DNA from: Enterobacteria phage Kha5h
Sequence record: NC_054905.1
DNA length: 64,000 nt
Strand: one strand, 5' to 3'
Part shown: positions 9,830 to 14,489 of the stretch, piece after piece
How the letters are laid out: each line of letters begins with the position of its first letter
Numbering within the stretch: the first letter of the stretch is position 1
Notes under the pieces: generated by a model
Seen by the model: only the letters and a program-made list of their open reading frames with translations
Told to the model about the DNA's origin: nothing
Database searches by the model: none
Translations under genes and position numbers: made by a program

Positions 9830-10030
9830 ATGGTACAAAAATTAATGGCACTTGTTAATGCCATAAAAGGTAATAAAAAGCGTATAGCTTTTACTATTTC
9901 TGCTATGGTAGGAATTTTACTCTGGAACTTTATTCTATCACCTGTTGCAATTGCGCATGGTATTAATATTCCAGTAGTTACTCTTGATACATTTGTAGAT
10001 TTAGCATTTGCTTTAGTTGGGTTGATTTAA
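9830..10030 (+). CDS. small hydrophobic protein (66 aa), plus strand
   Basis: Strong SD AAGGAGG 4 nt before ATG; predicted TM segments; stop overlaps gene 61 stop (TTAA). Confidence 0.45.
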   Translation: MVQKLMALVNAIKGNKKRIAFTISAMVGILLWNFILSPVAIAHGINIPVVTLDTFVDLAFALVGLI

Positions 10031-11055
10031 ATCTTAGCATATTTAGATAGCCGCATTTTAGCCATCAACCCCTGGGCAATATTATTTTTCATATATTCCA
10101 TAATTTGTTCAGGGGTTGCACCTTCCTTTCTAATCATATCATTGACATCTTTTGATTTCCAGGGAGATTTATCCCAAAACATAACCCTTTCTCCTGCATC
10201 AACTAATTTAGTCATTCGCTTAATAGTGTCAGGATGACGAGGTTCATTATCTAAAACCCACACACGTCTATCTTTAAATGGAACAACTTCTAGGTCTAAT
10301 TGACCACCCGTAATAGCTATACCATTTTCAATAAAAAGTGAATCTATAGGTCCTTCTAGAACATATACATCACCATCTTTAACTCGTTCGACTCCATAGA
10401 TTTTTGTTGCTTCAGGATAAGCTTTGATGGTGATATATTTTTGAGGAGCATCTTTCTTTAATGCACGTCCTTGAAAAGACTCAGCTTTTCCATTAGCATT
10501 ATAAATTGGAATAACAAGACGAGGCTCAGAAATTTCCTTTTTGTATGTTCCTGGTGCTATGCTATTAACTAATTTAGGCCATTCGGTTGTAAACCAAAGA
10601 TATTTCCATTTATCCTTTGGAATACAACGAGCTTTTACATATTTTATAATTGCATGGTCTTCCGCCAGTTTATCTAATCGAACACATGACGGAAGAGATT
10701 TAATTATTTTCTTCTCAGGTTGTTTAGGAAGTTCTTTAGGTTTTTCTACTGGACGACTTTTACCTTTTTCTTTTCTTATTTCAAAGATATACTCACGATA
10801 TAAATCAGGTTCAAACTCCTTTAAATATATTCCGATTGGTGCATGATAGTTACAGTTATAACAATGAATATTTCCTTCATTATTATCACCATAATACCAT
10901 CCACGAGCTTTATTCTGGTCGGTTTTTGAATCTCCACAAACAGGACATCTAAACCGTAATTTAAAAGTTGAACTATTATTTACTTGTGTGAATTTAGGTA
11001 AATGAGCTAATGCACGGTATGCAAACTCATTATCAATCCAAGGTATTGATGACAT
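10027..11055 (-). CDS. 61: DNA primase gp61
   Basis: 342 aa; zinc ribbon CPVCGDSK...CYNCNYH; recognised as T4 gp61. Confidence 0.9.
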   Translation of the reverse strand: MSSIPWIDNEFAYRALAHLPKFTQVNNSSTFKLRFRCPVCGDSKTDQNKARGWYYGDNNEGNIHCYNCNYHAPIGIYLKEFEPDLYREYIFEIRKEKGKSRPVEKPKELPKQPEKKIIKSLPSCVRLDKLAEDHAIIKYVKARCIPKDKWKYLWFTTEWPKLVNSIAPGTYKKEISEPRLVIPIYNANGKAESFQGRALKKDAPQKYITIKAYPEATKIYGVERVKDGDVYVLEGPIDSLFIENGIAITGGQLDLEVVPFKDRRVWVLDNEPRHPDTIKRMTKLVDAGERVMFWDKSPWKSKDVNDMIRKEGATPEQIMEYMKNNIAQGLMAKMRLSKYAKI

Positions 11056-11057
11056 TT

Positions 11058-11222
11058 TTACTCTTCTTTTTCTTTAGATTCCTCTTTTTTCTTTTTAGGA
11101 ATCTGCTCAGGGCCTTTATTTACTACAGCGCCTGACGTTGTTCCAGTAGAGATATTTTCAGGATTACCACCTGAATCTCCAGCGACCATATCTTCTTTAA
11201 TAAATTCTTTATATGTTTTCAT
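11058..11222 (-). CDS. small ORF (54 aa) with internal-protein-like N-terminus
   Basis: MKTYKEFIKE start resembles capsid targeting sequence; Lys/Glu-rich tail; 2 nt from gene 61 ATG. Confidence 0.4.
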   Translation of the reverse strand: MKTYKEFIKEDMVAGDSGGNPENISTGTTSGAVVNKGPEQIPKKKKEESKEKEE

Positions 11223-11268
11223 ATTAACCTCTATTCATAAAAGCATTAAAAATTTGGTCATCAATAGA
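11216..11268. repeat. direct repeat copy A (3' end of 118-aa gene)
   Basis: CATATTAACCT(C)TATTCATAAAAGCATTAAAAATTTGGTCATCAATAGA. Confidence 0.8.
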
Positions 11269-11580
11269 TGGAATAGCAACCTTTTCGGCATCATTTAGCA
11301 AATCATTAATTTCATCAGATAGCATAACACATGTGCCTTTATTTCCTGTAATTGTTACTGCACAATTACGAACGTTTTCTTTATCAAATTTTAGGTTAAT
11401 ATTTTCGTAGTGAAAATCCTTTAATGCCGAATATATCTTTAAAATGAAATTGTCTTTTACTACAATAAACCCAACTTCACTATTAAAACGTGGTTCATGG
11501 AAACTGTAATAAACCTTTTCATCTATAAAATCGTATGAAATTTTTTCCATTTTTAAATATGAAAATTCAGAACTATACAT
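11224..11580 (-). CDS. hypothetical protein (118 aa)
   Basis: Track ORF; C-terminal 12 residues shared with next gene. Confidence 0.55.
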   Translation of the reverse strand: MYSSEFSYLKMEKISYDFIDEKVYYSFHEPRFNSEVGFIVVKDNFILKIYSALKDFHYENINLKFDKENVRNCAVTITGNKGTCVMLSDEINDLLNDAEKVAIPSIDDQIFNAFMNRG

Positions 11581-11626
11581 ATTAACCTTTATTCATAAAA
11601 GCATTAAAAATTTGGTCATCAATAGA
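11574..11626. repeat. direct repeat copy B (3' end of 208-aa gene)
   Basis: One mismatch to copy A over ~50 bp. Confidence 0.8.
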
Positions 11627-12208
11627 AACATTTACTTTAGACTGTTTTTCAGATGGCAATTCATATCCACATATTACAATTTTATGATCAATATTAAAAT
11701 ACACAGAAGCAATATGATTAATGATATTTTCAGTGAAGTCTAAATCGACATCAATATCTTTTTGACCAAAGCCCAAAGGATAAATAATGCGAGTAATTCG
11801 ATTATCTTTAACAAAGATTCCACCGACATACTCTGTACTGCGTTTAAAGTCTACACGCCGACGAAATGAAAAATATTCAGGCTCTCTATGAGCTCGGCTC
11901 ATAGGACACAACGAGTAACTAGAATAAGAGATGTCAAATCCTACACCTTCGATATGAGCCAAAGTGTTATGATTAAACCAATTATAATCGTACGCCAAAT
12001 CCATTAGATTATAATATGTAAAAGGCACCGGATTAACATCATTAGTCACAAGCATATAATTAGCAACTGCTATAATTTCATTGTTTTTAACGAATACAAA
12101 CCGTGATTGATGCGAATGACCTGGACCCGCGTTTTCACGATTAATGATATAACACTGGGCACCTTTATATTTGTATGTATCTTTGCACTTGTGCATTTGA
12201 TAGAGCAT
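11582..12208 (-). CDS. hypothetical protein (208 aa)
   Basis: Track ORF; C-terminus SIDDQIFNAFMNKG duplicated in neighbour. Confidence 0.55.
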   Translation of the reverse strand: MLYQMHKCKDTYKYKGAQCYIINRENAGPGHSHQSRFVFVKNNEIIAVANYMLVTNDVNPVPFTYYNLMDLAYDYNWFNHNTLAHIEGVGFDISYSSYSLCPMSRAHREPEYFSFRRRVDFKRSTEYVGGIFVKDNRITRIIYPLGFGQKDIDVDLDFTENIINHIASVYFNIDHKIVICGYELPSEKQSKVNVSIDDQIFNAFMNKG

Positions 12209-12501
12209 TATTCACCTACCACTTCAGCGATGATATTTTTGTTATTAAAGTTTTTATCGCAATACAGAACATAATTATACTGCATTACACCACCAGACTT
12301 AAGTTGTTTTTGCACTTCAGCTTTCATTTCAGGACGATCGCGCTCAACGATATTCATAATATCCGCTTCAATTTGAGTTTCAACTTCAGTCTGATCTGCA
12401 GTCATAGACCATTCACACAAATCTTTATCATATCCTGCCATAGCAGGCTGAGCAGCGCAAGAAGCTAAAGCAAAAATTGTGGCAAAGATAAATTTTTTCA
12501 T
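12208..12501 (-). CDS. putative lipoprotein (97 aa)
   Basis: Signal peptide with lipobox LASC; early promoter 12530-12559. Confidence 0.55.
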   Translation of the reverse strand: MKKFIFATIFALASCAAQPAMAGYDKDLCEWSMTADQTEVETQIEADIMNIVERDRPEMKAEVQKQLKSGGVMQYNYVLYCDKNFNNKNIIAEVVGE

Positions 12502-12529
12502 GATAATCTCCTCAGTAGTTTATGTTTAT

Positions 12530-12559
12530 ATAGTATCTCAATTTCCAACAAAAGTAAAC
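12530..12559 (-). promoter_or_regulatory. early promoter (GTTTAC-N18-TACTAT)
   Basis: Upstream of lipoprotein gene 12208..12501. Confidence 0.55.
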
Positions 12560-12561
12560 AG

Positions 12562-12819
12562 CTATTTTAAAACTTCTGCGTAATCACATGTTACAAACTG
12601 TTTCTCTAGCTTAACGATTTTACGAAAATACCTTTTATACTGACGAATCTGCCTCTTCGTAGGACGTACAGCAAACTTAATAAATTCCACTAGACCAAAT
12701 GGAGGACTTTCTTCTGCTGGAATATCTAACACCAATTCCCACGTATCTGCAATAAGTGCTTTGAATTGCGTATTTTTCCTGACGTTATACGGAGTAGGTT
12801 TAAATAAAACAATATGCAT
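12562..12819 (-). CDS. hypothetical protein (85 aa from MHIVLF)
   Basis: SD GAGGA 4 nt before ATG at 12819, 1 nt after dmd stop; track ORF is longer. Confidence 0.45.
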   Translation of the reverse strand: MHIVLFKPTPYNVRKNTQFKALIADTWELVLDIPAEESPPFGLVEFIKFAVRPTKRQIRQYKRYFRKIVKLEKQFVTCDYAEVLK

Positions 12820-12820
12820 A

Positions 12821-13003
12821 TTATCCTCGGCAATCCACTTCGCACACTTTCTTGTCATCAATGAAAGCTTTAACTAATGCTTTATTAACTTCAGCATACT
12901 GAGTAGTAGCCCATTGAACGTCATCTTTCATCATTGTGGTTTCTTTAGTAAACATGCTTTCATTCTTAAACCACCCCATAAAAACTACCTTTACCAATTC
13001 CAT
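12821..13003 (-). CDS. dmd: Dmd, antitoxin against host RnlA/LsoA RNases
   Basis: 60 aa MELVKVVFMGWFKNESMFTKE..., recognised as T4 Dmd. Confidence 0.8.
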   Translation of the reverse strand: MELVKVVFMGWFKNESMFTKETTMMKDDVQWATTQYAEVNKALVKAFIDDKKVCEVDCRG

Positions 13004-13032
13004 AACAATCTCCTCATTTAACCAACAAGACT

Positions 13033-13062
13033 ACTATACCATAGTCTCGTCAGCTTGTAAAC
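13033..13062 (-). promoter_or_regulatory. early promoter (GTTTAC-N18-TATAGT) for dmd
   Basis: -35 overlaps gene 41 stop codon. Confidence 0.55.
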
Positions 13063-14489
13063 TAAAATTTTAATTCATTCGCCAAAGCATCTAACTGAGC
13101 TCGAGTCGATTCGTTTCTTTGATAGCGATTCTGTTCAGCCTGAATCTGTTGTGAACCTGCTACCTCACTCACTTCAGTTGGAGTAGAATCTTGTTCAATT
13201 TCTACCCATTTCTGATTTCCCTTTTGAACACCCATCAAAAACTTATTCCACTTATTCTTATCGCCATATCGTGATTTGATTTGCTTAATGAGTTGTTGTT
13301 CAGCAGCTGCTAGCTCCTCGGTTTCAATGACCGCAAGCATAAAATCAGCTGTTGCTGGAAGACCAGCAGATTCTGCAATATCGCTCATGTTAACATCAGA
13401 AGAGTCCCAAGCTTGTTTACCGACCTGTGCTGCAGTCCAAAGAACAGTTTCGGTTTCAACAGCCAGAGCACGCAATTCCTCTGCAATAGCTTTAACAGTT
13501 GTGTAACTATTTTCTGAATAAACTCTGATGCGGCAAGATTTACAAATACCTAGATAGTCGACAATAATGATTGTTGGAACAAAATTCTTTTTGAGCTTTA
13601 ATTCATTTAAAAGTGATCGAAATGTATTAGCATCTGCTCCACCAGTAGGGTACTGTTTAACGATTAAACGACCAAGAGTAGATTTCTCACGCCATTTTTC
13701 CATTTTTCCTTTATACTCGGCGTAAGAAATATGTCCATCATCAATATCGTCAAGAGAAACATCGAGCATATTAGCATCAATACGTTTAGCGCAGACTTCT
13801 TCTGCCATTTCCATGGAGATATAAAGAACGTTATGACCAAGCTGCAAATAATCTGCTGCTAATGAACAAAGTCCTAATGATTTACCAACGTTAACGCCAG
13901 CCATTAAAACGTTCAGTGTTCCAGTCTCAGCTCCGCCTTTAGTAATTTTGTTTAGAATTCTGAGTTTAAATGGAACCTTACGAGCTTTATTCATATAAGA
14001 TAGCCAACGCGCTTCGTAGTCATCCATCCAATCATGACCAACGTAACTATCAAATGAAATTGATAATGCTTGGCGCATGATGTCAGGAATAGCACCTACA
14101 TCTGGCATTTTCTTATTTCGTTTTTCCGGAGGAAGCTCAGCATTAGTTTGAATTTCGATTATTTTAGACGTAGCATTAAACATCGCCCTTTGCTGAACAT
14201 ATTTTTCTGTTTCTTTTACTAACCAACTGTGGTCTTCCGGAGAATCAGCTAGTTTTGAAATAAGTGTTTTTACACCAGAATATTCTGTTTCAGTAAATGA
14301 ACTATTTTCTAATGCAACATTTAACGCATTAATAGATGGAACGCTATGATACTCATTGACATGAGATTTAATTAATTTGAATGTATTTTTAGCTGGACCA
14401 CTTTCAAAATATTCTGAATCCATATATGGCCAAACTTTTGAAAAATAAGCTTGATCAAATATGAGATGAGAAAGAATAATTTCTACCAC
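13062..14489 (-). CDS. 41: replicative DNA helicase gp41
   Basis: 475 aa; DnaB-family Walker A GVNVGKS. Confidence 0.95.
   Translation of the reverse strand: MVEIILSHLIFDQAYFSKVWPYMDSEYFESGPAKNTFKLIKSHVNEYHSVPSINALNVALENSSFTETEYSGVKTLISKLADSPEDHSWLVKETEKYVQQRAMFNATSKIIEIQTNAELPPEKRNKKMPDVGAIPDIMRQALSISFDSYVGHDWMDDYEARWLSYMNKARKVPFKLRILNKITKGGAETGTLNVLMAGVNVGKSLGLCSLAADYLQLGHNVLYISMEMAEEVCAKRIDANMLDVSLDDIDDGHISYAEYKGKMEKWREKSTLGRLIVKQYPTGGADANTFRSLLNELKLKKNFVPTIIIVDYLGICKSCRIRVYSENSYTTVKAIAEELRALAVETETVLWTAAQVGKQAWDSSDVNMSDIAESAGLPATADFMLAVIETEELAAAEQQLIKQIKSRYGDKNKWNKFLMGVQKGNQKWVEIEQDSTPTEVSEVAGSQQIQAEQNRYQRNESTRAQLDALANELKF

Follow-up and report, generated by a model that had tools for sequence, protein, structure and literature searches.

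Why do two adjacent genes of a T4-type phage end in almost the same 49 nucleotides, and what can the shared end do for the genes that carry it? The question arises from the stretch of phage DNA analysed here (64,000 nucleotides, hereafter the window), which carries on its minus strand the T4-type gene row of primase 61, 61.1, a 118-aa ORF, a 208-aa ORF, sp, 61.4/tifA, dmd, and helicase 41 (Table 1). Positions 11000-12300 are 99.9% identical to Shigella phage Sf22, a Tequatrovirus, and the window is a Tequatrovirus close to that phage. The region with dmd, tifA, and adfA has been suggested as a possible anti-TA island (Srikant et al. 2022, 10.1101/2022.04.14.488369). The two genes with the common end, which appear in our ORF list as the preliminary description gave them, lie in tandem in a slot between 61.1 and sp, and the stop codon of sp overlaps the start codon of the 208-aa gene (TAATG).

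Several features of the surrounding genes should be mentioned in their own right. The longest ORF of 61.4/tifA (12562-12861, 99 aa, TTG start) overlaps the end of dmd (12821-13003) by 41 nt. In related records the product has 85 aa (258 bp), and the real start is therefore probably an internal ATG. Of the TAATATG joints (stop, T, start) in the whole window, 22 are on the minus strand, which is rich in genes, and two on the plus strand; minus-strand examples are at 11220, 11578, and 12817. Apparently this is the joint by which the genome ordinarily couples the translation of adjacent genes. In the 3' end of gene 61, an inverted repeat (10066-10118) with 14-nt arms, CAACCCCTGGGCAA and TTGTTCAGGGGTTG, and a 25-nt loop lies 36 nt beyond the stop of a convergent plus-strand ORF of 66 aa (9830-10030), for which it may be a terminator or an RNA structure. 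Finally, in the records OP870145, OP197928, NC_054934, OK272476, and others, the 61.1, 118-aa, or AdfA genes bear the label "major capsid (domain-containing) protein", evidently through an error of annotation transfer.

Table 1. Genes, repeat copies, and recombination interval of the slot between sp and 61.1, in window coordinates
Feature	Position	Strand	Remarks
Primase 61	10027-11055	minus	
Gene 61.1, 54 aa	11058-11222	minus	Start codon and SD inside the downstream repeat copy
Downstream repeat copy	11220-11268	minus	Last codons of the 118-aa gene (…SIDDQIFNAFMNRG), TAA, T, ATG of 61.1
118-aa gene (phrog_4122)	11224-11580	minus	Dispensable cassette
358-bp unit	11269-11626	minus	118-aa gene body and one repeat copy; present or absent among natural Tequatrovirus
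Upstream repeat copy	11578-11626	minus	Last codons of adfA (…SIDDQIFNAFMNKG), TAA, T, ATG of the 118-aa gene
Crossover interval (25 nt) within the upstream copy	11590-11614	minus	Informative sites 11615 (T4/S1P5QW-type up to here) and 11589 (AR1-type onward)
adfA (T4 gene 61.2 homolog), 208 aa	11582-12208	minus	Full-length match to Pfam PF23813
sp (spackle)	12208-12501	minus	Upstream edge of the variable slot

A repeat search finds a single direct-repeat family at the locus, consisting of two copies of 49 nt that are identical at 48 of 49 positions (98%) and spaced 358 bp from start to start, in agreement with the near-identical direct repeat of about 50 bp, with one mismatch and the same spacing, that had been noticed before. 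The chance expectation of such a 49-nt pair in a 64-kb window is approximately 1e-16. Each copy, written in the coding direction (minus strand) as TCTATTGATGACCAAATTTTTAATGCTTTTATGAATA(G/A)AGGTTAATATG, consists of 13 codons common to both genes and a variable R/K codon, the stop TAA, a single T, and the start codon (ATG) of the gene that follows. The encoded residues are S I D D Q I F N A F M N x, then G, so that the common tail comprises 14 residues, 13 of which are identical, instead of the 12 duplicated codons of the preliminary description, and the identity extends beyond the stop codon for 4 nt (T and ATG) rather than for about 10 bp. The sole mismatch (plus-strand C at 11231 and T at 11589) falls in the variable codon, which is AGA (Arg) in the 118-aa gene and AAA (Lys) in the 208-aa gene. 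The SD of the 118-aa gene (AAGG) lies within the last two codons of the 208-aa gene, and the SD of 61.1 (GAGG) within the last two codons of the 118-aa gene. The final 12 nt of the unit serve as SD, stop, and start all at once. On either side of the repeat, identity ends abruptly.

The 208-aa protein matches the Pfam family AdfA (PF23813) with 449 bits against a cut-off of 27 (E 2e-135; residues 1-208 on profile positions 1-211) and phrog_3781 over its full length, which identifies it as a bona fide AdfA, the anti-DarT factor A (T4 gp61.2). AdfA neutralises DarT1, a toxin to which it binds, only with a His at residue 164 in RB69 numbering (LeRoux lab, PMC11257639). In the motif NIINHIAS of the window AdfA, His165 aligns with this residue, and the allele would thus be of the DarT1-neutralising type. 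Neither sequence comparison nor Foldseek against the PDB (best E 0.13) finds a relative of AdfA with a solved structure, and the AlphaFold2 (AF2) models (pLDDT 72 for AdfA and 60 for the 118-aa protein) were used for the secondary structure of the tail only.

The 118-aa protein also scores above the PF23813 cut-off (34 bits), covering only profile positions 113-211, the C-terminal half, and the match vanishes entirely when the 14-aa tail is removed. Its Cys73 aligns with the His/Arg specificity position of AdfA, and the His is absent. With a match that hangs on the tail and a different residue at the specificity position, it would be inappropriate to class the 118-aa gene as AdfA, which it resembles mainly through the tail.

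The tail itself is found far beyond this locus. The peptide S(I/V)DDQIFNAFM(N/K)(R/K)(G/D) ends three gene families: (i) AdfA, of 208-216 aa, in Tequatrovirus and Mosigvirus; (ii) the 118-125-aa family, in Tequatrovirus, Gaprivervirus, and an unclassified metagenomic T4-like contig (locus L026); and (iii) a 122-167-aa family (phrog_8539), in Dhakavirus and Gaprivervirus. Four named genera of the Tevenvirinae (Tequatro-, Mosig-, Dhaka-, and Gaprivervirus) thus carry it, as does one T4-like contig of no assigned genus; 13 loci were all that a pattern scan of IMG/VR returned. In every examined genome that carries one, the tail genes start immediately after sp. Among 13 tails, 8 of the 14 variable coding columns are third codon positions, and the tail of the 125-aa member in L026 differs from that of the window at 7 nt, all of them synonymous. 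Because the variation is mostly synonymous, the constraint lies on the peptide and not on an RNA or DNA element, and the tail is under purifying selection at the protein level. AF2 models the tail of both proteins as a short C-terminal helix that follows a beta-rich body and a linker, a prediction of low confidence (tail pLDDT about 55-60). Being the most conserved part of all genes in the slot, the tail is probably functional.

The body of the 122-167-aa family is not significantly similar to that of AdfA or the 118-aa family (P about 0.1); a short N-terminal motif and the tail are common. The motif reads K-N-P-N-A-Q-A-Y in the 145/167-aa proteins (residues about 14-21; loci L013, L021, and others) and K-F-P-N-A-Q-C-Y in RB69-type AdfA (about 15-22), and stands at an equal distance from the start in both. 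With the profile comparison not significant, this hints that the 122-167-aa family may be a highly diverged positional ortholog of AdfA. A separate observation concerns L026 (3367-3390), where the tail ends in AGAGGCTAA, at once followed by a second AGAGGCTAA and then TG; in this 9-nt tandem duplication, the second copy provides the next gene with its SD and its TAATG start.

How stable is the tandem arrangement in nature? Junction-specific megablast queries against 50,697 phage records found both genes (adfA→118 junction) in approximately 156 records, AdfA alone in approximately 167 genomes, T4 among them, and the 118-aa gene alone, as in T2 (sp→118 junction), in approximately 141 records. 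The adfA-tail-61.1 query was covered to at least 80% in 323 records, a figure that includes the both-gene class through joined BLAST pieces. The site is empty in a small number of genomes, such as RB3 and RB9; the count of roughly 13-30 is a rough range only, since joined BLAST pieces do not let the RB9-type query separate empty from T2-type sites cleanly. It had been predicted from the repeat that recombination between its copies would delete the 118-aa gene, and nature bears this out: the AdfA-only genomes join AdfA directly to 61.1 and are exactly 358 bp shorter (spans of 943 and 1301 bp), and one of them has the chimeric tail described below. In all Tequatrovirus genomes examined, K (AAA) goes with the 118-aa gene downstream and R (AGA) with 61.1. 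Since the variant tracks the downstream gene, the last 12 nt of the repeat travel with the initiation region of that gene.

The T2-type and empty sites keep only a 14-nt copy of the repeat end, TAGAGG(T/C)TA(A/G)TATG, right after the sp stop. This 14-mer is located at 1725-1736 in RB9 (locus L003) and at 2082-2093 in T2 (locus L002), where the 118-aa gene is bracketed by it. These two states are not accounted for by tail-by-tail exchange. Simple microhomology deletions (at TGAATA or TGAATAA) were considered as the origin of the T2- and RB9-type junctions and rejected, as by inspection they do not reproduce the exact junctions.

Two recombination joints can be placed inside the repeat. The first is in the window. 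The body of its 118-aa gene is AR1-type, with 3/309 differences from AR1, and its adfA is T4/S1P5QW-type, with 40/416 and 76/165 differences from AR1 and 11/416 and 2/166 from S1P5QW. The window is therefore a mosaic, with the switch inside the upstream repeat copy (Table 1). The second joint was found with a synthetic query, the chimeric tail predicted for a tail-by-tail exchange in an AR1/ESh33-type genome, which starts with GAC GAT as in the adfA tail and ends with AGA GGT TAA T ATG AAA as at the 118→61.1 junction. Phage vB_EcoM-101112UKE3-1 (MZ234013) matches this query in a single piece; it is AdfA-only, and its tail is exactly as predicted. Its adfA departs from that of PaulHMueller over the last 189 nt, and from that of ESh33 over the last 138 nt, at the K/R codon alone, and its 61.1 differs from that of ESh33 at 1 of 165 positions. 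Judged from these comparisons, the 101112UKE3-1 and AR1/ESh33 genome types are related by one reciprocal exchange in the 11590-11614 interval, which may have been either a deletion or an insertion. Each joint could have arisen by allelic exchange between co-infecting genomes and not inside a single genome. The phage REP3 (OQ174502; locus L027, 667-1302) was also considered as a chimeric-tail case and rejected, because it is a different mosaic that switches to T4-type about 25 nt upstream of the tail. REP3 is an AdfA-only Tequatrovirus, and its RB69-like AdfA has Arg at the specificity position, which would make it of the "non-neutralising" type.

Could the identity of the two copies be due to constraint only; that is, to purifying selection on the peptide and on the ribosome-binding site, stop, and start, with no exchange between the copies? 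This explanation draws on the near-invariance of the peptide over three families, four named genera, and one contig, and on the triple role of the last 12 nt. However, synonymous sites vary freely between genera (the seven in L026), yet the two window copies have all 13 shared codons in common, for which the chance is about 4e-4 given the amino acids and the codon usage of the window. Given this value, constraint on the peptide alone is insufficient for the DNA identity. Moreover, genus-specific changes are common to both paralogs. In Gaprivervirus, where a 145/167-aa gene is followed by a 117/118-aa gene, both tails have GCC and AAG CGA (…AFMKR-), and in Tequatrovirus both have GCT and AAT A(G/A)A. 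The paralogous tails of one genome are 1-3 nt apart in Tequatrovirus and VR20 and 8 nt apart in TH57, and the tails of the 118-family orthologs are 7-9 nt apart between Tequatrovirus and Gaprivervirus. The gene bodies display the reverse pattern, the orthologs being 43% identical without the tail (E 5e-23) and the paralogs not significantly similar. With two recombination joints mapped inside the repeat as well, identity by constraint without exchange is improbable.

These observations indicate that the tails have been homogenised by recombination or gene conversion, in a form of concerted evolution, although the sites informative on gene conversion are few, with 2-3 in Tequatrovirus and approximately 6 between the genera. 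To judge from TH57, homogenisation is intermittent and not uniform, and paralogous tails are mostly, not always, the closer ones. The preliminary description had offered recent gene conversion or a shared functional tail, and each was partly right: the peptide is conserved over families, and the identity of the DNA needs recombination or conversion in addition.

A recent partial tandem duplication would make the 118-aa gene a young copy of the 3' half of adfA together with the start codon of 61.1, and the shared end a remnant of that event. The lengths fit, since 118 aa is approximately Met plus AdfA residues 92-208, and the duplicated ATG would have given an instant start codon. There is also a weak similarity between the bodies: in a profile-profile comparison without the tails (hhalign), residues 22-79 of the 118-aa protein align with AdfA 112-174, collinear with the tail (P 0.0017), and homology of the bodies is plausible but weak. 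Against a recent event, the genes are barely alignable outside the tail, the Pfam match is lost with it, and the family is old, with the orthologs in Gaprivervirus and the 125-aa member in a distant phage. Given this age, any duplication would be ancient and the identity of the tails cannot be residual, which leaves a young duplication very unlikely.

The 118-aa family can also be delimited. An exhaustive HMMER search of 1.84 billion representative proteins gave three clusters at 50% identity (118, 119, and 125 aa) and AdfA at E 2.5e-4. Its additions were one further subfamily and one spurious repetitive protein. The latter (P0024, 459 aa), the sole match of the 118-aa profile outside the T-even-type phages, is highly repetitive, with units of about 52 aa, and is almost certainly spurious. 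Among the sequences searched, the family is thus small and met only in T-even-type phages. T2 is stated to lack an adfA homolog naturally (PMC11257639). By our comparisons, the 118-aa family is a distinct, tail-sharing relative of AdfA, and T2 carries the 118-aa gene alone. It should be mentioned that the T2 record MH751506 gives this gene (locus L002, 1725-2081; the counterpart of 11224-11580 in the window) the name "gp61.2".

The repeat might instead be an RNA or DNA element, such as a regulatory RNA, a target of a nuclease or site-specific recombinase, or a transcription signal, selected as such and not for its peptide. A 6-bp inverted repeat (UCUAUU/AAUAGA) inside the 118→61.1 copy can indeed sequester part of the SD, but the hairpin is broken in the adfA copy, and the predicted folds of the junctions are no better than those of shuffled sequences (z -0.5, +1.5, and -1.0). 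No terminator-like site was found in 10900-13200 and no promoter-like match in the repeat copies, the count for the region being at background. As variation between genera is, in addition, concentrated at synonymous positions, an element of this kind is highly improbable. That the repeat was collapsed or expanded in sequencing or assembly has next to no probability, as nothing specific favours it, the tandem arrangement recurs in the approximately 156 independently sequenced phages, and the intervening 118-aa ORF is intact and conserved.

We therefore consider it likely that adfA and the 118-aa gene, a partial relative, have the repeat as their common 3' end, and that this end is selected for its peptide, homogenised by exchange, and serves as an in-frame recombination linker. 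The locus would work as follows. Tandem genes with a common 3' end fill the variable slot between sp and 61.1 in the dmd-tifA-adfA island, each copy of the repeat providing the selected C-terminal peptide, a stop, and the SD and start for whichever gene comes next. Conservation of the peptide would keep the DNA of the tails similar enough for the homologous-recombination machinery of T4, and exchange and gene conversion between the copies would homogenise them further. A few tens of bp of homology are enough for efficient recombination in T4. Deletions and amplifications at the neighbouring dmd-tifA locus need no more than microhomologies of 6-10 bp (10.1101/2022.04.14.488369). Exchange between the copies, within a genome or between co-infecting genomes, would add or remove the 358-bp unit precisely, and the linker would in this way shuffle the 118-aa cassette and alleles of adfA. 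With SD-TAA-T-ATG at the end of the linker, each product keeps both ORFs intact and the downstream gene coupled. By analogy with the mini-circles proposed for other T4-type loci (PMC2839356), an excised 358-bp circle could re-enter any tail-bearing gene. In this scheme we infer the UvsX-type enzymology, the direction of single events, and the biochemical role of the tail.

A wider reading is possible, although we hold it only tentatively and think it somewhat more probably wrong than right. The tail may be a portable binding or anchoring helix that defines a wider AdfA-like superfamily (AdfA and the 118-125-aa and 122-167-aa families), with the 118-aa gene a counter-defence factor and the tail at the same time the functional core of the protein and a recombination linker. 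If so, the bodies, which evolve fast, would set the specificity for different DarT variants or for other toxins, the function of the tail would be invariant, phages described as being without adfA, such as T2, would carry an AdfA-like gene, and the linker would let phages swap toxin specificities in frame.

The findings matter in several ways. Approximately one-third of the sequenced T4-like coliphages, T2 included, have an unstudied 118-aa gene tied to AdfA by a near-invariant C-terminal peptide, and this gene lies in an anti-toxin island (dmd, tifA, and adfA) that is under active mining for counter-defence genes. For binding assays of AdfA with DarT, the tail is an obvious part to mutate. 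The locus also illustrates, on a small scale and in nature, how phages can mix counter-defence cassettes without dedicated recombinases. What is new is the in-frame coding linker, the common three-way polymorphism, the tail-sharing relative of AdfA in T2-like phages, and the tail as the most conserved part of these genes; current understanding is not overturned by them.

How does this locus compare with known systems? With AdfA itself, the 118-aa gene has the C-terminal tail in common and adjoins adfA in the anti-TA island, whereas its product matches the profile in the C-terminal half only and carries a Cys in place of the specificity residue. As in the concerted evolution of tandem paralogs, the tails of paralogs are mostly more alike within a genome than those of orthologs between lineages, the difference being that the conversion tract is only the 49-nt tail and the rest of the genes is essentially unalignable. 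The laboratory evolution of T4 (10.1101/2022.04.14.488369) is alike in its deletion and amplification at short repeats, but the 49-nt repeat is far longer than the microhomologies of 6-10 bp used there. The closest described mechanism is the modular shuffling mediated by PeSLs in T4-type phages, in which the dispensable ORFs of hyperplastic regions have short conserved sequences on either side (Arbiol et al. 2010, PMC2839356; PMC4122927). The PeSL is an intergenic unit of about 100 bp with a sigma-70-like early promoter and a stem-loop terminator, and the mechanism proposed for it is homologous recombination between flanking copies, possibly via a small circle (PMC2839356). As with PeSLs, relatives differ at our locus by the precise gain or loss of an ORF (the 358 bp), with one chimeric linker left (101112UKE3-1). 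Unlike the PeSL, the linker of adfA and the 118-aa gene is a 49-nt coding tail and coupling joint with no promoter and no terminator, and because it is without a promoter of its own, an inserted gene would join the existing operon for its expression. The locus is thus explained by known processes, selection on a C-terminal peptide and homologous recombination in a hyperplastic anti-defence region, and is not categorically new; it differs from the PeSL system in that the linker is itself part of the genes that it joins.
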